64,000 nucleotides of DNA from Micavibrio sp. (GTDB taxonomy: Bacteria; Pseudomonadota; Alphaproteobacteria; Micavibrionales; Micavibrionaceae), in assembly GCA_002687495.1 (NCBI GenBank), contig NZAJ01000093.1:238-64237 (forward strand), given 5' to 3'. Below, one piece after another: positions 16,125 to 30,702 of the stretch (position 1 is its first letter; every line of letters begins with the position of its first letter). Below the pieces are notes generated by a model, which did not search any database, was not told the DNA's origin, and saw nothing but the letters and a program-made list of their open reading frames with translations. The position numbers and the translations under genes were made by a program.

Positions 16125-17012
16125 TTATATATTGTCACCAGCGCGTTGCATGGTTTGGTAATCTTGAACAGCTCCCGGGCGTGTGCGCACCGCAATTCTA
16201 TCGTCTTCACGTAAATCAATCGCGATAATGTCTTTATCTAGAATCGCGCTATCATTATGCGCTTTGACTAAGCGCTGCAAGCCCTCAAGTACGCCATGCT
16301 CTGGAAGCTTAATTTCTTTACCATCTTTTAAAAGCAAATCCCAGCGGCGATTGCCTATTCTTTGCGCGCCGCTCACACGCGCCTTTATTTCGGGCTGTGT
16401 TTCAAGATCCTTTAAAAGCGTGCTTAAATTTTGCGCTGCGCCTTCACCACTTAGCCTTAGCAAGTGCTTAAATGGTTCGATTTGATCTGTTGCAATATTT
16501 TCGCCCTTTTCATCCAGCAGCTTTATACCCGCCTCGCTTTTATACAAGGCTGTTGGCTGGCGCTCTTCTAGACGTATATATAAAGTGTCAGGCCAACGTC
16601 TTTGCACATAAGCCTTTTCAACCCAGCTAATTTTTTCCAATTGTGCACGTACTTCTTGGGGGTTAAAGGCTAGCAGCGGGTCATCTTCTTGCATGTTAAT
16701 AATAGCGAGAATAATTTCAGCGCTGGCATTTTCTCGCCCTTCAACAAGGATATCTTTGACGCGAAAACCTAAATCAGCACTCATTTCTACGAAACGATCA
16801 CGCGCCCACTCCCCACCGCGCGCCATCGAGCCGCTTAAGTAAAGCCAAGAGCTTAGCCAAATAACGATAACGACAACGGCCAAGGCGATACCAAAGCGGC
16901 GCATCCATGGCAGCATCACCGCCAAAAAACCTTTACGGCGTTTATTCACATCAGCGCGGCGCGTCCCAGCGCTACGAGATTTTTTGCGAGTATATTTTCT
17001 TTTTCGAGCCAT
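16125..17012 (-). CDS. ftsQ: cell division protein FtsQ
   Basis: 295 aa. Basic N-tail, a single TM segment and a POTRA-like region (VKDILVEG...). Positioned between ddl and ftsA. Confidence 0.85.
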   Translation of the reverse strand: MARKRKYTRKKSRSAGTRRADVNKRRKGFLAVMLPWMRRFGIALAVVVIVIWLSSWLYLSGSMARGGEWARDRFVEMSADLGFRVKDILVEGRENASAEIILAIINMQEDDPLLAFNPQEVRAQLEKISWVEKAYVQRRWPDTLYIRLEERQPTALYKSEAGIKLLDEKGENIATDQIEPFKHLLRLSGEGAAQNLSTLLKDLETQPEIKARVSGAQRIGNRRWDLLLKDGKEIKLPEHGVLEGLQRLVKAHNDSAILDKDIIAIDLREDDRIAVRTRPGAVQDYQTMQRAGDNI

Positions 17013-17039
17013 GACGTTTAGCCTTATATCAGATATAAA

Positions 17040-18281
17040 TTAGCTCTTACGCTTTAAGAGGCGCGCATCTTTTGGCACTGGGTCTTTAGGCAAGCGATGC
17101 GCCCGATGCAAGCTAAATGCTTCTTTGATTAAAGAGGATAAAAAGCTTGTAAAAAAGACTGGTTCTTGCGCGGCCTCCCACAGGAAATAGCCAAATGAGC
17201 CCGGCAAAGGGTTCACTTCATTGAGCCAAATCTCATTTGTTTTTGCATTGCTGATAAAGTCGATACGCGGCGCGCCTGAGCCATCCATTAACTCAAACAT
17301 CTCGCACGCCCAGTTTTTAATCTGCTCGCTCATTTCTTTTGGCAGATCAGGATTAATATCACGGGTGAGTGAGAGCATCCCTTCACTAACAGCGCCGCCG
17401 CCTGTTTTCGTGCCTAGCTTATTGCCGGTCTTATCATCACCGCCACTTAAGTATTTTGTTTTAAAATCAAGCAGCTCTTCCGAGGTTTTAGGGCGCTCAA
17501 TTGCTGAGCATTTCAACCCGCCAAAAGCCTTGCTGACGGACACGTTATATTCAACTAAATTATCAACGAATGGCTCTAGGATAGCTGTATCATCATATTC
17601 AAAGATCGCCGGTAAGCATGTACGAAGCTGCTCTATGTCATTCACTTTGGCAATGCCGATAGAGCTCCCTAAGTGGGCAGGCTTCACAATGCAGGGGAAT
17701 TTCATATCGCCCATAAGCATTTTTATCTGCTCTTCAGGCACCATATAACCTTGATCAGGGCGCTTAATCACGGCATAGGGCAGCATTGCAATTGAGCTAC
17801 CATGCAACATGCGCTTGGTCGCCACCTTATCCATGAGCACTGCCGAAGCCATCGTGCGCATTCCGACATAAGGGATATTTGCACTCTCCAGCAAGCCTTG
17901 CATATTACCATCCTCACCATTGAGCCCGTGAAATACAGGGATGAGCGCATCAAACTCAATACGCTCAAGCGAAGAGGCAAAAAGCTTTGTTCTTGTTCTG
18001 ATAATCGCGGGACGCTGCGTGGCGCTTAAATCAATTGTCCAGCCACCAAGCGTTTCAAGCTGCTCGCTGCTGAGCATGTAATTAGAGCGCTCTTTCAAAG
18101 ATTCATCCCCAGCAATCCAGCGCCCATCAGTGGTGATATAGATTGGGAAAGCTTCATATTCGCTTTGATCAATGGCGTGTAGAACCTGAAGGCCAGAAAC
18201 CACACTCACATCATGTTCCGGGCTACGTCCGCCAAATAAAACTGCGATTTTTTTCTTTTTATCCGAATGTTTCATGCTCAT
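17040..18281 (-). CDS. ddl: D-alanine--D-alanine ligase, atypically long form
   Basis: 413 aa. N-terminus KIAVLFGGRSPEHDVSVVSG, ATP-grasp core and NEVNPLPG. An insertion of about 23 aa follows the omega-loop KY (KYLSGGDDKTGNKLGTKTGGGAVSEGML). Confidence 0.9.
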   Translation of the reverse strand: MSMKHSDKKKKIAVLFGGRSPEHDVSVVSGLQVLHAIDQSEYEAFPIYITTDGRWIAGDESLKERSNYMLSSEQLETLGGWTIDLSATQRPAIIRTRTKLFASSLERIEFDALIPVFHGLNGEDGNMQGLLESANIPYVGMRTMASAVLMDKVATKRMLHGSSIAMLPYAVIKRPDQGYMVPEEQIKMLMGDMKFPCIVKPAHLGSSIGIAKVNDIEQLRTCLPAIFEYDDTAILEPFVDNLVEYNVSVSKAFGGLKCSAIERPKTSEELLDFKTKYLSGGDDKTGNKLGTKTGGGAVSEGMLSLTRDINPDLPKEMSEQIKNWACEMFELMDGSGAPRIDFISNAKTNEIWLNEVNPLPGSFGYFLWEAAQEPVFFTSFLSSLIKEAFSLHRAHRLPKDPVPKDARLLKRKS

Positions 18282-18378
18282 AAGATGCTAAGCGCCTTTA
18301 CCCGTAATATGTGAGTCTTTATAAGAATTATGAATCATATTTAATCATGAATGCCCCAAGCATTAAAGAGGCCGTACG

Positions 18379-19137
18379 TTGGAAAGTTTTGATAACACCC
18401 ATTTTTTAGCATTTGGCGATGGTGAGCAACCTATCTATTGGGCGCATGGCTGGGGACAATCACATAAAGCCTTCCTGCCATGGGCAGAGCGTTTCAAAGC
18501 TTTTGGGAAGCATATCCTGCTAGATTTTGCAGGGCACGGCGCCTCCCCTATCCCGCCTACAGCTTGGGGAACTGAGGATTATGCCGATGAAGCGGCTAAA
18601 CTTATTAAAGCACGCGAAGATGGCAAGCCGGTCATTTGGGTTGGACATAGCTTTGGCTGCCGCGTCGGGCTTCAGCTCGCTGCGCGTCACCCTGAGCTCA
18701 TCGCTGGCTTATGCCTGATCGCTGGTGCAGGACTAAAACGCAAAAGATCCCTATGGCAGAGGCTTTATTTCGGCGGGCGTATAAAACTGTTTAAGCTTTT
18801 GAAAAAGCTCATTCCTTTAGGCTTATCGCAGGATTGGCTCTATACAAAATTCGGCAGCCCCGATTATAAGAGCGCAGGCGAAATGCGCAAAATTTTCGTC
18901 AAAGTGGTCAATGAAGATCTTTCAGAGGTTGCTCAGCAAATCCAATGTCCTGTCACGCTTATTTACGGTAGCGACGATCAAGAAACGCCGCCAGAGATAG
19001 GCGAGCGCCTACATAAACTTATAAAAAACTCTAAGCTTATTGTTTTAGACGGGTTTGACCATTACACTCTTCTTTCTAGTGGACAACATCAAGCTGCTGG
19101 GCATTTAGACAACTTAATTAAGAGCGTAAAATCTTAG
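18379..19137 (+). CDS. alpha/beta hydrolase
   Basis: 252 aa. TTG start with AGAGG 7 nt upstream. GHSFG nucleophile elbow, and candidate GSDD and FDHY acid/His positions. Its stop codon TAG (19135-19137) directly abuts the ATG of the next gene. Confidence 0.8.
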   Translation: MESFDNTHFLAFGDGEQPIYWAHGWGQSHKAFLPWAERFKAFGKHILLDFAGHGASPIPPTAWGTEDYADEAAKLIKAREDGKPVIWVGHSFGCRVGLQLAARHPELIAGLCLIAGAGLKRKRSLWQRLYFGGRIKLFKLLKKLIPLGLSQDWLYTKFGSPDYKSAGEMRKIFVKVVNEDLSEVAQQIQCPVTLIYGSDDQETPPEIGERLHKLIKNSKLIVLDGFDHYTLLSSGQHQAAGHLDNLIKSVKS

Positions 19138-20775
19138 ATGACGGACTTTGCTGTAACCTTACTTCTTTTCATTGCTTTCATCGGCTTTTCAGCCAAGCGC
19201 ACGATGAGCTATATGCATATTTACCAGCAAGAAGAATATGATAGCCCTCGTTTTAAACGCTGGATGTTTAAAAACAAAGTTTTCGATAAGCGTTTAAGTT
19301 CGATCCTATTTATCTTATCGCTTGCTTTACTACCTGCGACATTACTTTTTGATGTGATTCCTGTTTTTGCAGCGAATTTCATTTTGTTTTTTATCTTCGC
19401 TTTAGTTGCGTATTTTGAAAAAGATCCACGCAAGAAATCCAAGAAAAAACTTGTTATGACTGAGCGCGTGAAGCGCATTTATGCACCAGCGGTTTTAGTC
19501 AGTGCGCTTAGCGGGTTATGGTGCTTTTTATTGCCGCAAGCTTATCCGTTATGGATTATTAATATCCAGCTCATTCCTTTTTGGATTATGGCTGTGAATG
19601 GTGCGCTAGCTCCACATGAGGCGCGCGTTCAGCAGAAATTCTGGCAGGAGGCGCATGACAAGCTTGTTGATTATCGTCCTTATGTGATCGGTATTACAGG
19701 CTCTTTCGGTAAGACATCCGTAAAGCATATTTTAGGGCATATCCTTAAAATGCATGGCTCTACCTTAATTACACCAGGTAGCGTTAATACACCGATGGGC
19801 ATTACACGTATTATTCGTGAGCAATTAGAGCCCGAGCATAAATATTTCATCTGTGAGATGGGTGCTTACGGGCCAGGTTCAATTAATCGTTTATGCCAGC
19901 TTGCCCCACCAGATATGGGGCTGATCACGTCTATCGGTCATGCGCATTATGAGCGTTTCAAATCACTCGAGACAGTGGCTGAGGCGAAATATGAGCTCGC
20001 GGAATCTGTATTGCGTAAAGATGATGGCGTTGTCATTGTGAATGAGCAGACATTGCGCTTTGCTCATACGCGTCAAATTCGCGATCAATATAGACATCAA
20101 TTCATAGTGTGTAGTGATGCACATGCGCCAACAGCGGATGGAAAAGCACCTGAGCCTAGTGATGCGATGATCCATAGCATTGAGCAAGATGCATCAGGTT
20201 TGAAGATTAACTTCAAATGGAAAAATATCACTTATGCAATTACGGCGCCGATCTATGGCTTGCATCATGGGCATAATATTGTTTTGGCCTTTATTGCTGC
20301 GCTTGAGCTTAGAGTGGATGAAAAAGACATCCAAGCTGCGCTGAACAGCTTGCCGCAGATTGATCACCGCCTACAGGTAAAGCCACAAAGTAACGGTACA
20401 ATTGTTATTGATGATGCTTACAACTCCAACCCTGTCGGGTTTGCGAGCGCGCTTGATTTGCTCAACACCTTGGCGCGAAAGGGTCGTAAAATCCTTATCA
20501 CGCCAGGCATGGTCGAGCTTGGCGCCGCGCATAAAGACGCGCATGAGAAAATCGGCATTCATGCTGGTAAGGTTTGCGATGTTGTGATCGTCATTAAATC
20601 TGAGCGCATCCCGAGCTTTGTTGAAGGGTTTAAGTCTAGCGGTGGCAAGCATATCTTGGAAGTTGAGAGCTTTGGCGAAGCGCAGCGTTGGGTCAATGAT
20701 AACGCGCAACGCGGCGATGTCGTTTTAATAGAGAATGACCTTCCTGATCTCTATGAACGCGTGCCGAAATTTTAA
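19138..20775 (+). CDS. murF: MurF-family Mur ligase with an N-terminal polytopic membrane region
   Basis: 545 aa. Residues 1-157 contain about five hydrophobic segments. After those come P-loop GITGSFGKTS, TPGSVNTPMGI, EMGAYGPG, GHAHYERF and IDDAYNSNP, which together resemble UDP-MurNAc-tripeptide--D-Ala-D-Ala ligase. Confidence 0.8.
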   Translation: MTDFAVTLLLFIAFIGFSAKRTMSYMHIYQQEEYDSPRFKRWMFKNKVFDKRLSSILFILSLALLPATLLFDVIPVFAANFILFFIFALVAYFEKDPRKKSKKKLVMTERVKRIYAPAVLVSALSGLWCFLLPQAYPLWIINIQLIPFWIMAVNGALAPHEARVQQKFWQEAHDKLVDYRPYVIGITGSFGKTSVKHILGHILKMHGSTLITPGSVNTPMGITRIIREQLEPEHKYFICEMGAYGPGSINRLCQLAPPDMGLITSIGHAHYERFKSLETVAEAKYELAESVLRKDDGVVIVNEQTLRFAHTRQIRDQYRHQFIVCSDAHAPTADGKAPEPSDAMIHSIEQDASGLKINFKWKNITYAITAPIYGLHHGHNIVLAFIAALELRVDEKDIQAALNSLPQIDHRLQVKPQSNGTIVIDDAYNSNPVGFASALDLLNTLARKGRKILITPGMVELGAAHKDAHEKIGIHAGKVCDVVIVIKSERIPSFVEGFKSSGGKHILEVESFGEAQRWVNDNAQRGDVVLIENDLPDLYERVPKF

Positions 20776-20821
20776 TTTTACTCTTCGGCTTTTGGGCTAC
20801 AAAGACTTCTTTTTAAAGCGC

Positions 20822-21802
20822 TTAATGCTCGCCGATACGTTTAATTTCCCATTTGAGGAGATTAACGCCAAATTTATCAAGGGCGCGGGCGATCAGCTCA
20901 TCACCTAGCATTTCCAAATCGCGCGCCTTCGCATCCCCCGTATTGAGCATAAAATTACAATGTTTTTCGCTCATCTGCGCGCCGCCAATTTTTAGGCCCC
21001 GCCCCCCTACCATCTCGACGATCTGCCAACTGCGTGTCCCTTCTGGCAGGCCAGCGCGTTTCAGCGCTTCGGCGGAAGGATTTGCAAAAGTAGAGCCGCC
21101 CGTTTGCTCTTTTATAGGCTGGGTGTCATTACGCTTTTTCTTAATCTCGGTAATGCGCGCTTTTACGGTTTTATAGTCCTCGGCCTCGCCCTTTAATATG
21201 CCAGAGAGGAAAATATAATCATGCGGCGCACCTGAATGACGATAGCTCATATGCATATCTTTTAAGAGCATGCGGTGAAGCTCACCCTTTCGATCTAGCG
21301 CGCTCACGCCCAAAAGCACGTCTTTTACTTCTGCACCATAAGCACCAGCATTCATACGTAGCGCGCCGCCGAAACTTCCCGGAATACCAGAGAGAAACTC
21401 CATCCCGCCGATGCCCGCCTTCACAGCCGCCGCCGCAATATTCCCATTCAGCGCGCCGCACCCCGCTTCGATATAAGCATGCTTTGAGCATCCCGTACCC
21501 GATACGGGATCAAGCTCCCCGCCTTCGCGGGGATGCTGCTTAGCGTGAGCACTCACTTTAGCAAAGGGTTTACCGAGCTGAACACATGCGCCACGTATCC
21601 CGCCATCGCGAATGATGGTATTAGCCAGCCCGCCAATGATGGTGAGCGGCTCGTTGGCAGGCCAGCTTTGCAAGAACATACTTAAGTCTTCGGCATCAGC
21701 CGGCTTAAATAACAGATCAGCTTTACCACCACAACGAAACCAGCTCATTGCCCCAAGCGGTGCATTTTCTATGATTTCGCCTTTTAAGCCTTTGATATTC
21801 AT
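20822..21802 (-). CDS. murB: UDP-N-acetylenolpyruvoylglucosamine reductase
   Basis: 326 aa. FAD-binding N-domain (GGKADLLF, IIGGLANTI), an SYR motif (MSYRHS) and the C-terminal MurB domain. Confidence 0.95.
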   Translation of the reverse strand: MNIKGLKGEIIENAPLGAMSWFRCGGKADLLFKPADAEDLSMFLQSWPANEPLTIIGGLANTIIRDGGIRGACVQLGKPFAKVSAHAKQHPREGGELDPVSGTGCSKHAYIEAGCGALNGNIAAAAVKAGIGGMEFLSGIPGSFGGALRMNAGAYGAEVKDVLLGVSALDRKGELHRMLLKDMHMSYRHSGAPHDYIFLSGILKGEAEDYKTVKARITEIKKKRNDTQPIKEQTGGSTFANPSAEALKRAGLPEGTRSWQIVEMVGGRGLKIGGAQMSEKHCNFMLNTGDAKARDLEMLGDELIARALDKFGVNLLKWEIKRIGEH

Positions 21803-21843
21803 TGATAATATTCGTTCTCTTTAGTTTATTCGTCGTTTTTTAT

Positions 21844-21873
21844 AGGGAGGGGGGCTACCCTCCTTGTTTTTAT
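21844..21873 (+). terminator. terminator-like hairpin plus T-tract on the plus strand, just outside the murB start
   Basis: AGGGAGGG (21844-21851) pairs with CCCTCCTT (21858-21865), giving 8 bp including one G-U pair. The loop is GGGCTA, followed by GTTTTTATT. No plus-strand gene ends here. Confidence 0.45.
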
Positions 21874-22125
21874 TAGATTTTCTTTCAGTTTGTTCGTATA
21901 GGCACAGTTTTAGTGTATATCAGCCGAGCATAGGCCAAGAAAGAAACAAAGGAAAGAGGCCGGCGGTTTTTTGTCATCGATAAAAACATGCATATATTAT
22001 AGGAATAAATTCATCACATGTCAATCTTATAGACTCATAAAAGCCGTATTTAAATTTGACAGTCATGCGTGTTTTTTGCGATCTTATATTCCGAGAGAAC
22101 AACACAAACGAGACGGTTTAAATTT

Positions 22126-22437
22126 ATGAATGCAATGACTGGCTTTGATGGCCACGCCAAGGCTTTAGATATGGTTACTCTTTTTATTCCCGCGCAATAT
22201 TGCGAAGCTTTTAACAAAAGCGCACAAAAGATCCCACCGCTTTTGACAGCGGAGAAAAAGCTTGAGACAAGCGAATATACGCGCACAAATAAACATGTGC
22301 ATGAGCGACAAACAAGCCGCCGATATATCGCAGCGCTTTTTACCAGTCGCGCTGATGCTGAGCATTTTGCTAACAAGCTTGTCAGTTATGCGCAGCCAGA
22401 CTCAATGATTAAAGACCAGCTTATTTTTGAGGGTTAG
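22126..22437 (+). CDS. hypothetical small protein (103 aa) in the murB-murC gap
   Basis: ORF 22069-22437, with the first ATG at 22126. Composition is protein-like, unlike the overlapping Cys/hydrophobic-rich minus-strand ORF. The SD is weak. Confidence 0.35.
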   Translation: MNAMTGFDGHAKALDMVTLFIPAQYCEAFNKSAQKIPPLLTAEKKLETSEYTRTNKHVHERQTSRRYIAALFTSRADAEHFANKLVSYAQPDSMIKDQLIFEG

Positions 22438-22485
22438 TGGTCACGCCCTGATGTTTATCTGAAGGGCAATTGCTGTTAAGTGCTG

Positions 22486-23928
22486 TTAAGCGGCCGCTCC
22501 ATTCACCTTCGCCTGCTCTTCTTTGAGTTTTTCAGGTAGAGCATGCGCGATTGAGGTGATATCACCCGCGCCCATACAGATCACATAATCGCCTTCATGA
22601 GCAAGGCTTGCGACTACTCGCGGCAGATCGTCACGCTCTGGAAGAGCTTGAACAGCGCGGTGGCCGTGTGCCTTAATCCCTTCAACAAGGCCGAGTTTAT
22701 CTGCGCCTTCAATTGGGTCTTCCCCTGCTTCATAGACATCCATCACGATCACTTGATCTGCGCCATTAAAGCAGGTGCAGAATTCCTCGAAGAGATCATG
22801 AAGCCTTGAATAGCGGTGGGGCTGCATCACAGCAATAACTTTACCGCCTGTATCTTCGACCGCCATACGCGCAGCTTTAAGGACTGTTTCAATTTCAGTT
22901 GGGTGGTGGGCGTAATCATCAATGATAGTAATGCCCTCAACTTCACCGCAATGGGTGAAGCGGCGCTTAACGCCTTTGAAGTTTTCAAGCGCGCTTTTAA
23001 TCAGCGGCGCTGCGATTTCAAGCTCTAGCGCTATGGCGATCGCGGCAGTTGCATTCAGGACATTATGGTCGCCCAGCATCGGCAGGAAGATATCCTTGAG
23101 GGCTTTGTCATTGGGTAGCGCGACATCAAAGGTCGAGCCTTTAGCGCTGGTACGCACGTTAGAGATTTGCACGTCGGCTTGCGGGTTTGTGCCATAGGTA
23201 ATGATTTTGCGATCTTTCACAGACGGGATGAGCGCTTGCACTTCGGGGTGATCAATACAGAGCACGGCAAAGCCATAAAATGGCAGATTATGAATGAACT
23301 GACGGTAAGCGGCTTTGACATTTTCGAAGGTGCCGTAATGCTCCATATGCTCTGGGTCCATGTTTGTCACAACACAAGCCGTGGCCGGAAGGCGCGTGAA
23401 TGTGCCATCGCTCTCATCGGCTTCGACGACCATGATATCGGAAGCGCCGAGGCGGGTGTTCGTACCGTAAGCATTGACGATGCCGCCATTAATAACGGTT
23501 GGGTCTAGGCTTTCCAGCATCGCGCCGACCATAGAAGTGGTTGTCGTTTTGCCGTGGGTTCCGGCAATCGCGATAGCCCATTTGAGGCGCATAAGCTCGG
23601 CGAGCATTTCAGCGCGACGAATAACGGGGATGCCTGCTTCGCGTGCTGCGACAAGCTCCGGGTTGCTAGGCTTAATCGCAGAGGACATCACAACGCATGC
23701 AAGCTCTTTACCGTCTTTTGTTTTTATATGCTCGGCTTCATGACCGATATAGATACTCATTCCCTTGTCACGCAGCCGCTTTACATTAGCGCTATCTGAC
23801 ATGTCAGAGCCTTGCACTTCATAGCCAAGAGCGTGCAGAACTTCGGCAATACCGCTCATACCGATACCGCCAATGCCGATAAAATGAAGCGCACCTATAT
23901 CTTTTGGTAAACCATATTGCATGCTCAT
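22486..23928 (-). CDS. murC: UDP-N-acetylmuramate--L-alanine ligase
   Basis: 480 aa. [15 protein letters not shown]-terminal Rossmann motif and P-loop GTHGKTTTT. Confidence 0.95.
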
Positions 23929-23979
23929 GACTTATACTCCTTGAACGTATCTTTATACGTTTTATATTTCCGTACTCAA

Positions 23980-25104
23980 TTATTTAACAATAGTTTCGCG
24001 TTCGCCCCAGCCACTGACCAGTTCGGTGACAAGGTTACCAAGGCGGCGGGCGGCATCTGGCTTGGCGCACTCACGTGCGTTTTCTGCGGCTTTAAATAAT
24101 TTCGATGGGTTTCTTAAAATTGTTTCAATGCGCTCGCTCACCACTTCAGGCGTGAAGCTATTTTCAATCATCACCCATGCACCGCCGCGATCAGCCACAA
24201 CATCAGCATTCATTTTTTGCTGTTGGTCTTTATGGTGAGGGTAAGGCACAAAAATCGCAGGGCGCCCAGCGGCTGTTATTTCTGCAACGGTTGATGCGCC
24301 AGAGCGGCCTATAAAAAGGTGGCATTTTTCAAGCTCGCCTGAAACATCTTCAACAAAGGGCATGAGCTTTACATCGATCTGCGCTTCCTCATAGGCTTGT
24401 TGCGTTTGCTCTAGATATTCTTCGCGGCATTGCTGCGTGATATGTAAGCGGGCGCGCAGTTCTTCGGGAAGTGTTTTTAGCGCTTGAGGGAGAACATCAC
24501 TAAAGACTTTCGCACCTAATGATCCGCCCATAACAAACACATTGAGCGCCCCATCCATTTCAAGAGGCGGATATGGTTTTGTATAAAGCGCTGTAATTTC
24601 TTCGCGCACAGGGTTACCTGTAAAAACCGTGCGCATGGAGGTTTCTTTATCTATGCCATGCAAATTTGGAACAGAAGAAGCTATACGCTCAGCTTGATGA
24701 GCGAGGGCGAGATTTGCGCGACCAATGATCGCGTTTTGCTCATGAAGAACGGTTGGGATTTTCGCATCTTGCGCAGCTTTAACGGCGGGGAAAGATGGGT
24801 AGCCGCCAAAGCCAACGACAGCAGCAGGCTTTTTCTTAGAGATGAGGGCTTTAGCTTGTAGCAACCCTAAAACCAGATTCATCGCGCCTTTAACTTTACC
24901 GATCAGGCCTGCACCTAGCGTTCCTGATTTAACAATATGATGCGGAATATCGGGAAACAGATTTTTAAATTTCTCGCCGCGTTCATCGCTAATCCACTCA
25001 ACATCATAGCCACGAGACACGAGGTCACGTGCGAGTGCTGCAGCAGGCATTACGTGCCCACCTGTTCCGCCCGCAGCGACAATTACAAGGTTCTTTTTTC
25101 TCAT
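23980..25104 (-). CDS. murG: undecaprenyldiphospho-muramoylpentapeptide beta-N-acetylglucosaminyltransferase
   Basis: 374 aa. AAGGTGGHVMPA motif. 4-bp overlap with ftsW. Confidence 0.95.
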   Translation of the reverse strand: MRKKNLVIVAAGGTGGHVMPAAALARDLVSRGYDVEWISDERGEKFKNLFPDIPHHIVKSGTLGAGLIGKVKGAMNLVLGLLQAKALISKKKPAAVVGFGGYPSFPAVKAAQDAKIPTVLHEQNAIIGRANLALAHQAERIASSVPNLHGIDKETSMRTVFTGNPVREEITALYTKPYPPLEMDGALNVFVMGGSLGAKVFSDVLPQALKTLPEELRARLHITQQCREEYLEQTQQAYEEAQIDVKLMPFVEDVSGELEKCHLFIGRSGASTVAEITAAGRPAIFVPYPHHKDQQQKMNADVVADRGGAWVMIENSFTPEVVSERIETILRNPSKLFKAAENARECAKPDAARRLGNLVTELVSGWGERETIVK

Positions 25105-26273
25105 AAACCTACCTTATCTTGACTGCGTGGCGCTTGTAAAGATAGACCTCCACGTGAGATCCCTTTACGCACAGAACGCCGCGTTAACGCCAAGACAATA
25201 CCAAAGGCAAACCCCATTGATAAAAGCGATGAACCGCCATAACTCATGAAAGGCAAAGTCATACCTTTTGCAGGAAGAAGCTGCATGGCTGAGCCCATAT
25301 GAATGAGAGCTTGCAGGCCGAACATGCTTAAAATACCGCCGACACTTAAAACAACGAACATATCCTCACAAGAGATAAGGCGGTTGAGGCCGCGAAAAAT
25401 TATGAAGCCATAAATGCCTATAATTAGCGCCAGGAAGACGAGCCCCATTTCCTCACCTGCGACTGAAAAGATAAAGTCAGCATGAGAATCAGGGAGATTA
25501 AGCTTCACACTGCCCTGCCCCGGCCCTGTCCCTAAAACGCCGCCTTCGCGAAAAGCTTCTAAGGATTTTTCCACCTGAAAGTTATCGCCTGTTTCGGGAT
25601 TGAAATAGCGATCGACTCGACTTTGCACATGCTCAAAGCTCATATAGATCATCACGATCGCGCCGATTCCTGCGACAATTAGCAATATCACCCAGCGAAA
25701 CGGTAAGCCTGCCAAGAAAATTTGCGCGCCCCACACAGAGGTGAGCACGAAGGTCATCCCAAAGTCAGGTTGAAGAAGCAAAAGCGTTACGCTTAGGCAA
25801 TACAGCACGCCCGTAATGATAAAACCGGGGAAGTTCTCACGTGCTTTTTTCAGTGACATGAACCATGCCGCCATCACAATAAAAGCGGGCTTTAAAAACT
25901 CTGAAGGCTGAAGGGAGAAGCCAAAAATATGAAGCCAGCGCTGCGCGCCTTTAATCTCCATGCCCGTAAGCAGCACCAAGATCATGGCCGCGACCGCTCC
26001 TAAATAGACAAAAGCTGATAAGCGCCTGATTATCTTTAACGGCATTAAGGATAAGCCTAACATGATGCCTAGCGCGGGGATTAAGAAGATTATATGGCGT
26101 ATAAGGAAATGATAATCCGATAAGCCGATATGATTAGCGACTGATGGGCTTGCGGTTGCAACAAGAGCAACGCCAAATATTGAGAGCACCAAAATTGCGG
26201 CGAGCATCCCGCGATCTACCGTCCACCACCAACGTCCTAAAATAGATGTATTCGTACGGGAGAATAGGCTCAT
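25101..26273 (-). CDS. ftsW: peptidoglycan glycosyltransferase / lipid II flippase FtsW
   Basis: 390 aa polytopic SEDS protein (QPSEF.K, PFMSYGGSS). Confidence 0.93.
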   Translation of the reverse strand: MSLFSRTNTSILGRWWWTVDRGMLAAILVLSIFGVALVATASPSVANHIGLSDYHFLIRHIIFLIPALGIMLGLSLMPLKIIRRLSAFVYLGAVAAMILVLLTGMEIKGAQRWLHIFGFSLQPSEFLKPAFIVMAAWFMSLKKARENFPGFIITGVLYCLSVTLLLLQPDFGMTFVLTSVWGAQIFLAGLPFRWVILLIVAGIGAIVMIYMSFEHVQSRVDRYFNPETGDNFQVEKSLEAFREGGVLGTGPGQGSVKLNLPDSHADFIFSVAGEEMGLVFLALIIGIYGFIIFRGLNRLISCEDMFVVLSVGGILSMFGLQALIHMGSAMQLLPAKGMTLPFMSYGGSSLLSMGFAFGIVLALTRRSVRKGISRGGLSLQAPRSQDKVGL

Positions 26274-27613
26274 AGGGCTTTCACCAATTCCGCGAAAGCA
26301 TTGCCGCGCTCTTCGAAGTTTTTAAACTGATCCCATGATGCACATGCGGGAGATAGTAGCACCACACCGCTTTGCCCAGAAGATTGCGCCATCTCATGCG
26401 CGCCTTTAACCGCGCGCTCTAAGGTGGAGCTGCGGCTATAAGCTATATTATGAGCTTCAAACCATTGAGCAAAATCGTCCTCGGCTTCACCAATAACGAA
26501 TGCATGTTTTATACGCTCTTTAAAAGCATCTAAGCCTTCAAGCCCGCCGTCTTTAGCGCGTCCACCGACAATCCAGTATATATCCTTATAAGAGGATAAG
26601 GCTTTAGATGTGGCTTCAGCATTGGTGGCTTTTGAGTCGTTGATATAAAGCACATCGCCAATCTGTGCGACGCGATATTGACGATGATTAAGACCTGGAA
26701 AGCTCTGTAAGGCGTTCATAAAATCTTGATCATCTATGCCGAGGATGCGGCAGATACATAAAACAGCCAATGCGTTTTGCAAGTTATGGCTTCCGCGAAT
26801 GGCCGGCGCACTTAAGGCATTTGCGTTTTGAACATCCATCGTTAAGCTGATCAGCTCACGCAGCTTTTGCGCTTTAACCTCTTCATGAATTTCCCATGAA
26901 TACATGTCATCAGTGGAGATCACCGCATAGGCTTTTTCGCATTTTTCTGGTGGCGGGCCAAAAATACGCGCCTTAGCCGCGGCATATTTATCAATATCGC
27001 CATGACGATCAATATGATCCGGGGTAATGTTGAGCAGCAAGGCAATATCTGGGGTGAAGCTTGGGCATAAATCCATTTGGTAGGATGAGATTTCAAGAAT
27101 ATAGACACCACCCTCTAGGGTAGAGAAGTCTTCTAGCGCGAGGGCAGCTGTGCCGATATTGCCGCCCATCTGATTAGGGATTTTTAATGCCTGTAATATG
27201 TGATGCATCAGGGCTGTTGTGGTGGATTTACCATTTGTGCCTGTAATGCCTATCACACGATTAGGCTTGTCTTGCGCTTGATTGCAGCGATGAAAAATCT
27301 CGATGTCACTAATAATTTCTATATTGGCAGCATTAGCCGCTTTGACAACCGGATGTGGTTCAGGGAAGTATAGCGGGACACCCGGCGCGAGCACGAGTGC
27401 GGCGCAGTCTTTCAGGGCTTGCTCATCAAGCTGTTTGATCTCCGCGCCTAAAGCTTTGGCTTTTTCACGTGCGGATTCGTTATCATCCCACGCGATGACC
27501 TTACCGCCTGCCGCGCAAAGCGCTTTGACAGAGGCGAGCCCAGATATGCCAAGGCCAAAAACAGCAAGCATTTTGCCATCTATGCTTTGAATATAAGGCG
27601 TGCAGTTAATCAT
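26270..27613 (-). CDS. murD: UDP-N-acetylmuramoylalanine--D-glutamate ligase
   Basis: 447 aa. P-loop GITGTNGKSTT and the dcw position between mraY and ftsW. Confidence 0.95.
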   Translation of the reverse strand: MINCTPYIQSIDGKMLAVFGLGISGLASVKALCAAGGKVIAWDDNESAREKAKALGAEIKQLDEQALKDCAALVLAPGVPLYFPEPHPVVKAANAANIEIISDIEIFHRCNQAQDKPNRVIGITGTNGKSTTTALMHHILQALKIPNQMGGNIGTAALALEDFSTLEGGVYILEISSYQMDLCPSFTPDIALLLNITPDHIDRHGDIDKYAAAKARIFGPPPEKCEKAYAVISTDDMYSWEIHEEVKAQKLRELISLTMDVQNANALSAPAIRGSHNLQNALAVLCICRILGIDDQDFMNALQSFPGLNHRQYRVAQIGDVLYINDSKATNAEATSKALSSYKDIYWIVGGRAKDGGLEGLDAFKERIKHAFVIGEAEDDFAQWFEAHNIAYSRSSTLERAVKGAHEMAQSSGQSGVVLLSPACASWDQFKNFEERGNAFAELVKAL

Positions 27614-27620
27614 AAATATC

Positions 27621-28706
27621 CTAGCGGAGTTTTAATGTCGCAAGGCCGATGAGCGCTAAGATCACAGCGATAATCCAAAAGCGGATAACGATAGTTGGCT
27701 CTGACCAGCCTTTTTTCTCGAAATGATGATGAAGCGGTGCCATTGCAAACACCCGTTTTCCGGTGAGCTTAAAGCTTGTCACTTGAACAATGACGGAAAC
27801 TGTTTCCAAAACAAATAGGCCGCCAATAATCGCCAAGACAAGCTCATGTTTGACCATAACAGCGATAGCACCAAGCACCCCGCCCATAGCAAGGGAACCG
27901 GTATCACCCATAAAGATCATAGCTGGTGGGGCGTTATACCATAAAAAGCCCATAGCACCGCCAATGAGCGCGCCACATAAAATCGCAAGCTCACCGCTGC
28001 CGATGACATATGGCACTTTGAGGTAATTCGCAAAAATTTCATTCCCGACAAGATAGGCGATCAAACCAAAACAGGCTGCGGCGATGGCTACTGGTACAAT
28101 CGCAAGGCCATCAAGACCATCTGTTAAATTTACAGCATTAGACGCGCCAATCATGACGAAGAGCGCCCATGGTACAAAGAATAAACCAACATAGATAAAA
28201 GTCTCTTTCATCATAGGAATGGCTACATGCTGATTAATATGATCGGGCAATGTATTCATGACGCCAAAGGCCGCAATACCGCCAAACAGGATTTGACCCA
28301 GAATTTTAAGCTTTCCAGAAAGGCCTTTAGAGTTTTTCTTTGTTAGCTTGAGGTAATCATCAGCAAAACCAATCAGACCGTAGCCCACCATCACGAGTAA
28401 TGCATACCATATAAGTGGATTAGAGAGATCAGACCAAAGAAGCGTTGAGATTGTCACCGAGATTAAAATCATCAAGCCGCCCATACTTGGCGTACCGACT
28501 TTGCTCGCATGAGCTTCTTCTAAATATTCACGAACATTGCTAGCGCCAGCTTGTTTGGCTTTAAGCCATGTGATCATCGGCTTGGCAATTAAAAAGCAAA
28601 TCATTAGCGCTGTCAGCACAGCCAAACCTGTTCTGAATGTCAAATAATTGAACAGGTTGAAAAAGATATGTGTTTCAGCCAGCGGCGTTAAGAGATGATA
28701 TAGCAT
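27621..28706 (-). CDS. mraY: phospho-N-acetylmuramoyl-pentapeptide transferase
   Basis: 361 aa. NAVNLTDGLDGLA and PLHHHFE motifs. Confidence 0.97.
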   Translation of the reverse strand: MLYHLLTPLAETHIFFNLFNYLTFRTGLAVLTALMICFLIAKPMITWLKAKQAGASNVREYLEEAHASKVGTPSMGGLMILISVTISTLLWSDLSNPLIWYALLVMVGYGLIGFADDYLKLTKKNSKGLSGKLKILGQILFGGIAAFGVMNTLPDHINQHVAIPMMKETFIYVGLFFVPWALFVMIGASNAVNLTDGLDGLAIVPVAIAAACFGLIAYLVGNEIFANYLKVPYVIGSGELAILCGALIGGAMGFLWYNAPPAMIFMGDTGSLAMGGVLGAIAVMVKHELVLAIIGGLFVLETVSVIVQVTSFKLTGKRVFAMAPLHHHFEKKGWSEPTIVIRFWIIAVILALIGLATLKLR

Positions 28707-28776
28707 AATATTTTTATATAGCCTTTATACTTTTTGTCTTTTTTTAAAAGCGATCAAATGCGCTTTTATTGACTTT

Positions 28777-29241
28777 TTATTGTAGAACTTCTTCCTTCGT
28801 ATCACGCACTCGAGACGCGGAAACAGCGCGGATTACTCCAGCATAGCGCATACCTTCACGCCCATGACGATAGAGCATATAATCTCCAGGTCTTATTACT
28901 TCAGGAACAACGGCGGCCAGTTTGGCACGAGGAGCGATCGCTTGCAAGCTCTCAGTAACATTTGCCACGACACCAAAACCACGATCTAGATACACCAAGT
29001 CCAGATCGTCGATATAGCGAGGCAAGCGCACTTTATGCTCTTTTTCTTTAGGCACTTTCAAATCCACTTCCAAGAAATCAGGCAAAGCGTTTTTCAGCAA
29101 AACTTTACGTCTGCCCCGCCCTGTATCAATCACACTTTCAACATGCAAAATTGTATATGGCGTCTTTGGCTTTGGACGAACACTGACTTTCATCCCGCCG
29201 ACTTGCCTATGATGCCAATGTGAGTGTCTTGGTGCTTTCAT
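28777..29241 (-). CDS. hypothetical basic protein (154 aa) occupying the canonical murF position
   Basis: An AGAGGGA SD lies 6 nt upstream of the ATG, 15 bp after the murE stop. The mraY start is 70 bp downstream with no terminator between. His-rich N-terminus (HSHWHH). No Mur ligase motifs. Confidence 0.65.
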   Translation of the reverse strand: MKAPRHSHWHHRQVGGMKVSVRPKPKTPYTILHVESVIDTGRGRRKVLLKNALPDFLEVDLKVPKEKEHKVRLPRYIDDLDLVYLDRGFGVVANVTESLQAIAPRAKLAAVVPEVIRPGDYMLYRHGREGMRYAGVIRAVSASRVRDTKEEVLQ

Positions 29242-29256
29242 GGTGTATCCCTCTCT

Positions 29257-30702
29257 TTAGTCTTTTTCTTGTCTTAAAGTTTGAATTGCATTTGCGGCTT
29301 CTTCCGCATCATCGAAATGATCTGTATGGGTGGCAAAGCTTTGGCCTTGCTCATGGCCTTTTCCTGCGATCAGCAAGATATCGCCTTTTCTAAGCTGTGA
29401 AATGCCCGCTCTGATCGCTTCACGGCGATCACCTATTTCTTCTAATGTGCTGGAGGCGCTTAAAATTTCCGCGCGAATGCTGGCAGGATCTTCTGAGCGC
29501 GGATTATCATCCGTAACGATTGCGGCATCAGCTAAGCGGCTTGCAATCTCGCCCATGATCGGGCGTTTCCCCTTATCACGATCGCCGCCGCAGCCAAATA
29601 CACATACAAGCTTAGAGCCATCGGCGACATGCGGACGCAGCGCGTTTAAAACCGTTTCCAGCGCATCTGGTGTATGGGCATAATCAACATAAATACCTGC
29701 TTTTTCAGGGTGCCCGTCAATAAGCTGTAGGCGCCCTGGCGCGCCTTTTATTTGCCCTAAGGCCTCAAGATAGATATTCGTTTTATCCGGATTTGAGCCA
29801 ATCGCCATACCAAGAGCGCATAGAGCATTCATTGCTTGAAATTCTCCAACCAAAGGCAGTTCAATTGTATATGGGTTTCCATGCACACCAAGTGCTATCA
29901 CTTGACCATGGCTATTTGCCGCGCGCTCAACCAGACGGATATACTCAGCCCTATACCCATAATCGATAACCTTAATGGAGCGCTTTTCACAGATTGCCTT
30001 AAGTGTATCAAATTCCGGTACATCCGCATTTAAAACAGCGATACCTTTATCAAGCAGCACCTCTGAGAATAGACGCGCTTTTGCTTGCAGGTAGTTCTCC
30101 ATCGTTTGGTGATAATCAAGATGATCACGGCTTAGGTTCGTAAATCCCGCAACTTTAATGCTCGCGCCATCGAGGCGAGATTGATCAAGCCCATGAGATG
30201 AGGCTTCCATTGCCAAATGCGTCACATTTTGCTCTTCTCTTAAGCGCTTAAATTCTTTATGCAGAGCCACTGTTTCAAGGGTTGTCATTTTCCCGCTTAA
30301 TGTGCCTAGTGATTCCGCACGTTCGCCTGAATAGCTCCAAAGCTGCTGTAGGAACGACACAACAGATGTCTTCCCGTTTGTGCCTGTTACTGCGGCAATC
30401 ATAGCAGGCTGCTCTTTATAAAAGGCGGCGGCTAGCAGCGCGAAGAGATGGCGAGGATTATCATCTGTGATTAACTCAGGCTGAGCCGCTGTATCAGACA
30501 GCCCATCAATATTTTCAGGCCGTTGCGTACCGCTCGGCGCCAAGATATAGCGCGCGCCGTTCGCAAGCGCTTTACCGATAAAATCACGACCATCAAATTT
30601 TTCACCCGGAAATGCAGCGAAGAGAAAGCCCGGCTCAACCGCACGGCTATCTTGAGTAAGACCCGTAATATTCGAAACGATAGAGGCGATATCAAGTGTC
30701 AT
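29257..30702 (-). CDS. murE: UDP-N-acetylmuramoyl-L-alanyl-D-glutamate--2,6-diaminopimelate ligase
   Basis: 481 aa. P-loop GTNGKTS and the DNPRSEDP motif of meso-DAP-adding enzymes. Confidence 0.95.
   Translation of the reverse strand: MTLDIASIVSNITGLTQDSRAVEPGFLFAAFPGEKFDGRDFIGKALANGARYILAPSGTQRPENIDGLSDTAAQPELITDDNPRHLFALLAAAFYKEQPAMIAAVTGTNGKTSVVSFLQQLWSYSGERAESLGTLSGKMTTLETVALHKEFKRLREEQNVTHLAMEASSHGLDQSRLDGASIKVAGFTNLSRDHLDYHQTMENYLQAKARLFSEVLLDKGIAVLNADVPEFDTLKAICEKRSIKVIDYGYRAEYIRLVERAANSHGQVIALGVHGNPYTIELPLVGEFQAMNALCALGMAIGSNPDKTNIYLEALGQIKGAPGRLQLIDGHPEKAGIYVDYAHTPDALETVLNALRPHVADGSKLVCVFGCGGDRDKGKRPIMGEIASRLADAAIVTDDNPRSEDPASIRAEILSASSTLEEIGDRREAIRAGISQLRKGDILLIAGKGHEQGQSFATHTDHFDDAEEAANAIQTLRQEKD

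Follow-up and report, generated by a model that had tools for sequence, protein, structure and literature searches.

A 64,000-nucleotide stretch of a Micavibrio sp. contig (NZAJ01000093.1; hereafter the window) carries a division and cell wall (dcw) cluster on its minus strand, in the order mraW, ftsL, ftsI, murE, ORF154, mraY, murD, ftsW, murG, murC, murB, ddl, ftsQ, ftsA, ftsZ and lpxC. Two genes on the plus strand, coding for an alpha/beta hydrolase and a MurF-like ligase with a hydrophobic N-terminus, lie within this block in the murB-ddl interval and diverge from ddl, as had been described in an earlier annotation made from the DNA letters alone (the sequence-only reading). The slot between murE and mraY, in which a canonical cluster carries murF, is occupied by a small open reading frame (ORF), ORF154. 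The features of the locus are as follows:

19138-20775, plus strand: ligase ORF of 545 amino acids, with its ATG at 19138
19138-19665, plus strand: N-terminal membrane domain of the ligase (amino acids 1-176), with five predicted transmembrane helices and two basic cytoplasmic loops, replacing the MurF N-domain
19666-20775, plus strand: predicted MurF-type catalytic body of the ligase, consisting of the ATP-binding central and the C-terminal domains (Pfam, NCBIfam, PDB profile and Foldseek)
18379-19137, plus strand: hydrolase ORF of 252 amino acids, with a TTG start and the stop codon TAG at 19135-19137, coding for a predicted cytoplasmic alpha/beta-fold serine hydrolase related to EstV and the family V esterases (Pfam, NCBIfam and conservation)
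17040-18281, minus strand: long-form ddl coding for 413 amino acids, in the ddl position of the dcw cluster
28777-29241, minus strand: ORF154 in the murE-mraY slot, a putative, catalytically dead remnant of the native alphaproteobacterial MurF (hhalign and gene position)
18282-18378, no strand: 97-bp spacer between the divergent ddl and hydrolase genes, presumed from its position to be the promoter region of both units
20822-21802, minus strand: murB
29257-30702, minus strand: murE

The MurF-type motifs named in the sequence-only reading (GITGSFGKTS, TPGSVNTPMGI, GHAHYERF and IDDAYNSNP) are all present in the ligase and are invariant among 25 homologues, as are the P-loop T187-S194, E240, H270, H410-R411 and D425-D426..N429..N431-P432. 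Pfam domain assignment identified Mur_ligase_M (PF08245; 113.5 bits, amino acids 186-388) and Mur_ligase_C (PF02875; 55.6 bits, amino acids 410-531), while the Mur ligase N-domain (PF01225) had no Pfam match in the protein. The best NCBIfam model is that of murF (TIGR01143; 216.3 bits), which aligns from profile position 72 on; murD, murC, murE and mpl score 69.9, 60.3, 57.5 and 33.5 bits, respectively, cyanophycin synthetase 30 bits and MurT 25.7 bits (cut-off 800), and FolC is absent from the NCBIfam matches. Structures of MurF also head the PDB profile search (e.g. 4qdi, E 3e-37), with alignments that begin at chain residue 114 or later, and Foldseek placed MurF 4qf5 and 3zl8 at the top (E ~1e-19) for the AlphaFold2 model of the ligase (predicted local distance difference test score, pLDDT, 85.6). 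MurF is thus the nearest family by both sequence profile and modelled fold, and with all ATP/Mg motifs invariant the catalytic body is predicted to be of the MurF type. Local alignments with the nearest canonical alphaproteobacterial MurFs gave 22-25% identity, whereas the ligases of Labrys, Acidobacteriota and Desulfobacterales share 46-50% identity with it, and the transmembrane ligase appears to be a xenologue. Besides this ligase, only murC, murD and murE in the window code for the Mur-ligase fold. Database names for these ligases are MurF or "Mur ligase family protein", and a protein 100% identical to the ligase is labelled "MAG: Mur ligase [Micavibrio sp.]" by NCBI.

Hydropathy analysis bore out the approximately five hydrophobic segments that had been noticed at the N-terminus of the ligase, at about amino acids 3-19, 55-71, 75-93, 116-133 and 139-158, with Kyte-Doolittle 19-residue means of 1.6-2.6, whereas the catalytic part does not exceed 1.08. 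Nine and ten lysine and arginine residues are found in the two long loops and none in the two short loops; by the positive-inside rule this charge pattern places the N-terminus outside and the long loops and catalytic domain inside, supporting a predicted topology in which both conserved loops and the catalytic domains are cytoplasmic. Helices are modelled by AlphaFold2 at residues 2-31, 36-46, 52-70, 76-93, 100-106, 109-125, 137-144 and 146-179 (pLDDT mostly >80). Across homologues of only 53-64% identity, ten residues of the first loop (R21, Y25, H27, Q30, Q31, E32, Y34, R38, W42 and D50) and eight of the second (E94, D96, R98, K102, K103, L105, T108 and R110) are invariant, as are P147, N154, E161 and Q165 further on in the membrane domain. 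The invariance of these polar cytoplasmic loops suggests that the domain is more than a mere anchor. No Pfam or NCBIfam family covers it, and a profile of the membrane domain alone retrieved 1036 clusters at E<=1e-3 among 1.84 billion representative proteins. Complete-looking members of this family (>=480 amino acids) are 492-634 amino acids long, mostly 505-570, lengths which indicate that the membrane domain is fused to a Mur ligase body. The source names of the 30 members looked up include Alphaproteobacteria, Pseudomonadota, Rickettsiales, Bdellovibrionales, Melainabacteria, Chlamydiales and Hydrogenedentota. No fusion of hydrolase and ligase was found among the family members returned by the profile search.

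The hydrolase matches Abhydrolase_1, Abhydrolase_6 and Hydrolase_4 in Pfam. Its best NCBIfam family is the Helicobacter pylori-type EstV lipase NF058580, aligned over nearly the full length at 106.8 bits; as the cut-off is 300 bits, it is a relative rather than a member of this family. The HGWG oxyanion motif, the nucleophile elbow G89-H90-S91-F92-G93, D200 and H228 are invariant or at least 95% conserved among 75 cassette hydrolases, and from this conservation of the triad and HGWG the protein is predicted to be an active enzyme. Neither a hydrophobic segment nor a signal peptide is visible in its sequence. A Shine-Dalgarno-like AAAGAGG precedes the TTG start at 18379 by a 7-nt spacer, and the stop codon TAG (19135-19137) directly abuts the ATG of the ligase at 19138, a juxtaposition already pointed out in the sequence-only reading and upheld by the coordinates.

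Relatives of the ligase were found in 415 genomes in a scan of one genome per species, and the best 80 loci among these genomes were studied. The hydrolase gene lies directly 5' of the ligase gene at all 75 loci with at least 800 nt of upstream sequence, which is more than chance would give. The estimated stop-to-start distance is -4 or -1 nt at 29 of the 74 loci measured and mostly within ~50 nt at the remainder, and the hydrolase appears to be translationally coupled to the ligase.

The ddl gene, which the sequence-only reading had taken as a fixed landmark, is part of the same unit. Its product contains the Pfam domains Dala_Dala_lig_N and Dala_Dala_lig_C, with PRK01966.1-4 as the best NCBIfam model (245.8 bits, cut-off 262), while the Van ligase models score far under their cut-offs. 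It shares 50-56% identity with the Ddl encoded next to the gene pair in Acidobacteriota, Desulfobacterales and Azospirillum and only 23% with the short Ddl of the related canonical dcw cluster L081; the canonical clusters of relatives carry such a short Ddl (~330 amino acids) at the ddl position. The equivalents of E15, S150 and Y216, which are typical of D-Ala-D-Ala ligases, are kept (numbering via the E. coli DdlB sequence, consistent with the known residues). Y216 corresponds to the tyrosine of a KYLS motif that is present in all cassette Ddls, and an altered specificity of the enzyme was rejected on account of its retention. Cassette Ddls of several phyla share two elements that are not found in E. 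coli DdlB, namely a Gly/Lys-rich insertion (approximately amino acids 283-312 in the window), which ends in SEGMLSLTR[DE][IL]NP, and a C-terminal tail (approximately amino acids 395-413) with a conserved LPxDPxPxDARL. An ORF of more than 800 amino acids with two tandem Ddl units occurs beside murB, on the opposite strand, in a related alphaproteobacterium with a canonical murF (L083:14626-16781, minus strand); kinship with the cassette Ddls was considered and rejected, as the two are unrelated.

The layout of the window is common to all Micavibrio-type loci. Outside dcw clusters, the hydrolase-ligase pair occurs between unrelated flanking genes in Labrys, Azospirillum halopraeferens, Marivibrio, Stellaceae, Hyphomicrobiaceae, Acidobacteriaceae, Bryobacteraceae and Desulfobacterales. 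A long Ddl is encoded adjacent to and divergently from the pair at all Micavibrio-type loci and at nine of the 15 loci of other lineages. Since the long Ddl adjoins the pair also outside dcw clusters, ddl is assigned to the cassette, which comprises the divergent long-form ddl, the hydrolase and the transmembrane ligase and, judging from these comparisons, is self-contained and horizontally spread. There are signs of mobility outside the Micavibrionales: in Desulfobacterales a gene pair coding for an AbiEii-type AAA ATPase and RloB is inserted between the ligase and ddl (L073:3199-5164), and in Acidobacteriaceae a phage-integrase fragment is located just 3' of the ligase (L079:12114-12641). 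A tblastn search of 72,556 plasmid records yielded no ligase of the transmembrane type, only canonical MurFs through the catalytic part.

One locus, L082, contains both systems. Its dcw cluster runs from ftsI, murE, an intact murF and mraY on through murB, followed by a cassette consisting of the long ddl on the opposite strand, a VanX/DdpX-like peptidase of the M15 family, the hydrolase and the transmembrane ligase. In this cluster ftsW directly follows mraY (L082:5147-7402), and murD is not at its usual place. The M15 gene (L082:12216-13037, plus strand) is translationally coupled 5' of the hydrolase, as it is in six Labrys loci (L066:8353-9162, plus strand, and five others). Its product scores 35-64 bits against the DdpX and VanX models (cut-offs 176 and 320). 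The gene was seen only in L082 and Labrys, and no locus with a relic murF has it; tblastn searches with the M15 proteins of L082 and Labrys gave no match in either the window or the Micavibrio-type loci.

The ORF at 28777-29241 does exist in the murF slot, as the sequence-only reading had stated, but, contrary to that reading, it is related to murF and appears to be what is left of the C-terminal domain of the native MurF. Longer relics of 325-430 amino acids occupy the murE-mraY slot of some related genomes; they score 40-85 bits with PRK14093 (cut-off 544) and include:

L017, 19800-21065: long MurF relic
L030, 19771-21063: long MurF relic
L048, 19371-20348: long MurF relic
L050, 19742-21034: long MurF relic
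L054, 18521-19603: long MurF relic

The long relics align with canonical MurF over its full length in hhalign (100%, E 5e-68), with the P-loop deleted. Neither GxxGK[ST] nor DDxYNxNP is kept in any of 55 long-relic clusters, as against 65 and 60, respectively, of 65 neighbouring canonical MurFs. Short relics of the ORF154 type (~150 amino acids) consist of the first few MurF residues joined to the C-terminal domain. They match the long relics (99.8%, E 3e-29) and canonical MurF (98.3%, E 1.6e-14), residues 21-149 of ORF154 aligning with MurF residues 346-476. No NCBIfam family matched ORF154, the short type having been scanned in the window, and Foldseek found no significant PDB match for its AlphaFold2 model (pLDDT 79; best E 0.45), which counts against the assignment; the identification as a MurF remnant therefore rests on profile-profile comparison and gene position and not on fold.

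The PRK14093 scores form a series, from 565 bits in L081, which lacks the cassette, through 455 bits in L082, where both coexist, to the 40-85 bits of the relics, and in two genomes the murE-mraY slot is empty, with 283 bp only. The canonical MurFs closest to the relics are those of L081 and L087, which have a short ddl and no cassette, and of L083, L085 and L086, with no cassette within reach. Only loci with the cassette show decay of the native murF. The order of events suggested by the series is acquisition of the cassette, coexistence, relaxation and decay of the native murF, and then its loss, with the native gene apparently having decayed in place, leaving ORF154 as its putative remnant, rather than having moved. 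Several residues of the short relics are invariant or nearly so (W9, D39, G41, G43, P74, Y84, P118-G119-D120 and R138), and the dead MurF remnants stay intact as ORFs across very divergent genomes. This conservation suggests that the relics may have retained a non-catalytic (pseudoenzyme) role, rather than undergoing neutral decay.

The remaining sequence of the locus offers few further features. A scan for sigma-70 consensus sites found none in the ddl-hydrolase spacer (18282-18378), promoter and terminator consensus scans returned fewer sites in the real than in shuffled sequence, and Rfam gave no matches over positions 17000-30000. No island-like anomaly was seen in the composition profile of the window, and the GC content of the cassette (42-47%, as against 46% for the window) is not atypical, which fits an old acquisition common to the whole order. 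A spacer of ~680 bp (21803-22485) separates murB from murC, two genes that adjoin each other in most related loci; it contains just two overlapping ORFs without a Pfam family (108 and 122 amino acids) and has no Rfam match.

The architecture and conservation of the ligase, the cassette structure, the decay of the native murF and the lack of any other MurF candidate in the window are probably best accounted for by replacement of both the native ddl and the native murF by the cassette in the Micavibrio-type lineage, where it would provide the housekeeping Ddl/MurF system, working at the membrane. As the lineage retains the full peptidoglycan gene set and the window offers no other Mur-fold candidate, the ligase is most likely a working D-Ala-D-Ala-adding enzyme. 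The cassette Ddl would make D-Ala-D-Ala and feed it to the ligase, which would sit in the inner membrane with its N-terminus outside and its two basic loops and both catalytic domains in the cytoplasm. Using ATP, the ligase would join the dipeptide to the MurNAc-tripeptide precursor beside MraY, in the last cytoplasmic step of precursor synthesis. The cytoplasmic loops of the membrane domain probably stand in for the missing N-domain by holding the nucleotide or pyrophosphate end of the acceptor. The hydrolase may be an obligatory enzymatic partner made by coupled translation, which, at a guess, trims or edits the stem-peptide terminus or the precursor.

Several observations weigh against this replacement. 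The ligase falls under the curated cut-off of TIGR01143 (216.3 vs 288.6 bits), as it does under that of every other MurF equivalog model in NCBIfam, and is without the domain through which canonical MurF holds the UDP moiety. The cassette Ddls share a conserved insertion of ~27 amino acids in the omega-loop region, just after the K215-Y216 equivalent, and the S281 equivalent is apparently replaced. The cassette of L082 coexists with a seemingly functional canonical murF, and because of such coexistence the cassette need not be a simple MurF duplicate; in Labrys and Azospirillum, a canonical murF is presumably also present. The VanX/DdpX-like M15 peptidase in the L082 and Labrys operons would be an odd companion for a ligase that consumes D-Ala-D-Ala. 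None of the 30 membrane-domain family members with source names looked up belongs to the Campylobacterota, the group of H. pylori. The scan for Mur ligases covered the 64-kb window, and a second canonical murF or ddl may lie elsewhere in the genome.

Some of these observations would be explained if the cassette instead served an alternative pathway for the stem-peptide terminus, in which a dipeptide, possibly D-Ala-D-X, is joined to a membrane-proximal or lipid-linked MurNAc-tripeptide, and the hydrolase, together with the VanX/DdpX-like peptidase where present, removes or edits competing canonical termini in the manner of the Van clusters. In the Micavibrionales, this would have become the sole pathway and the dipeptidase would then have been lost. 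The intact murF beside the cassette in L082, the M15 gene coupled 5' of the hydrolase there and in the six Labrys loci, its absence wherever murF is a relic, the conserved Ddl insertion and the low MurF score of the ligase would all be in keeping with such a pathway, as would the substitution of a membrane domain with invariant basic cytoplasmic loops for the UDP-binding N-domain and the precedent of MurT, a Mur-ligase homologue without an N-domain that acts on lipid II. However, the Ddl retains the tyrosine equivalent to Y216, a hallmark of D-Ala-D-Ala ligases, the M15 proteins match DdpX/VanX weakly, most cassette copies outside the Micavibrionales have no M15 gene, and no VanH- or VanT-like gene is available to supply an alternative substrate, while the idea of a lipid-linked acceptor rests solely on the loss of the N-domain. 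An alternative terminus, which resembles the second option of the sequence-only reading (a distinct ligase acting with the hydrolase at the membrane, perhaps on a lipid-linked intermediate), is thus possible, though rather unlikely. A related and similarly doubtful proposal, put forward here as speculation, is that the five-transmembrane domain and its invariant basic loops bind a MurNAc-tripeptide that is linked to undecaprenyl pyrophosphate or kept at the membrane in some other way. The hydrolase would then be a subunit that edits or trims, and the cassette a portable, self-sufficient alternative ending of the Mur pathway. If so, D-Ala-D-Ala would be added on the membrane and not on the soluble UDP precursor, and the cassette would run beside the canonical pathway (L082 and Labrys, with the VanX-like helper) or replace it (Micavibrionales and perhaps Campylobacterota).

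Two further explanations fare worse. The ligase might not be a peptidoglycan enzyme but a Mur-fold amide ligase, resembling CapB, cyanophycin synthetase or FolC, that makes some other membrane product with the hydrolase as its acyl-transfer or esterase partner; the absence of the substrate-recognition N-domain, the unrelated genomic contexts of some cassette copies and the esterase family of the partner, whose H. pylori relative cleaves short-chain esters in vitro (PMC3741291), would agree with this. Scores for the CapB, cyanophycin and FolC types are nevertheless absent or negligible next to those for MurF, the cassette is constantly linked to Ddl or a D-Ala-D-Ala dipeptidase-like gene, and the native murF decays only with the cassette present, making such a role very unlikely. 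The sequence-only reading had itself offered, as one of two options, that murF was relocated and membrane-tethered in this lineage. The functional half of that option, a membrane-bound MurF, agrees with the replacement favoured here, and the MurF-like ligase inside the dcw cluster and a canonical slot without an intact murF could be taken to suggest its other half, that the native gene moved within the cluster and gained a membrane anchor. The slot, however, holds the decayed native gene, the ligase is far closer to the cassette ligases of other phyla than to the canonical alphaproteobacterial MurFs, and the gene pair is found outside dcw clusters too; a simple relocation is contradicted on all three counts and its probability is minimal.

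Comparison with known systems places the putative replacement cassette closest to canonical MurF (TIGR01143; 1gg4, 4qdi/4qf5, 4cvk and 3zl8), which has the same M and C domains and all the conserved motifs and is likewise linked genomically to ddl and the dcw cluster. It differs in its soluble N-domain (PF01225), which contacts the UDP part and in place of which the ligase has ~176 residues with five transmembrane helices, and in that the ligase scores under the family cut-off and follows an alpha/beta hydrolase at all 75 loci that could be checked. Some actinomycete Van clusters carry an extra MurF. L082 and Labrys likewise pair a MurF-like ligase with a VanX/DdpX-like M15 peptidase, and L082 also has a dedicated Ddl; in contrast to Van clusters, the window contains no M15 peptidase, VanH, VanT, VanR or VanS and its Ddl keeps the signature tyrosine, and Van clusters have no counterpart to the hydrolase or the transmembrane domain. 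MurT, of the MurT/GatD lipid II amidotransferase, is another Mur-fold protein without the nucleotide-binding N-domain and works on a lipid-linked precursor with a hydrolase-type partner enzyme. It is, however, soluble and has a DUF1727 C-terminal domain and a glutaminase partner, whereas the partner in the window is an alpha/beta hydrolase and not of the GatD type.

A parallel may be found in H. pylori, in which HP0738 (ddlA), HP0739 (the EstV hydrolase) and HP0740 (murF) are presumably adjacent and would form the same three-gene set. At ~494 amino acids, HP0740 would accommodate a transmembrane domain together with the M and C domains. It is an essential inner-membrane MurF (1485 bp) with four predicted N-terminal transmembrane domains (PMC9448923, PMC9507126, PMC6501431), as compared to five in the window ligase, and is part of the Csd5/CcmA cell-shape complex; a link to Csd5/CcmA is neither known nor was it sought in Micavibrio. 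EstV has the same alpha/beta fold and Ser-Asp-His triad as the hydrolase, in common with the family V carboxylesterases (NF058580), and is a short-chain carboxylesterase in vitro (PMC3741291). Similarity between the H. pylori Ddl (2pvp) and the cassette Ddl ends at approximately residue 284, suggesting that the former is without the omega-loop insertion. The statement in the sequence-only reading that the arrangement belongs to no described system largely holds: the literature found contains no account of how the cassette is built, of its obligatory hydrolase, of the conserved loops or of native murF being displaced, and it notes a membrane-spanning MurF merely in passing and for H. pylori alone (PMC9448923).

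The membrane form of MurF is widespread, with at least 1036 clusters and relatives in 415 species genomes, and extends across Alphaproteobacteria, Acidobacteriota, Desulfobacterota, Melainabacteria, Chlamydiota and Hydrogenedentota. Textbooks present Mur ligases as soluble enzymes of the cytoplasm, and they have long been targets for antibiotics; the membrane form raises the questions of where the last "cytoplasmic" step truly takes place, what the acceptor is and what the hydrolase does. The Micavibrionales represent a natural experiment, in which a cassette has apparently displaced the native enzyme and its dead remnant is conserved as a small protein. Should the MurF of H. pylori belong to the same family, these results would have direct relevance for an essential protein of an important pathogen, and inhibitors aimed at the N-domain contacts of canonical MurF would not apply to it.

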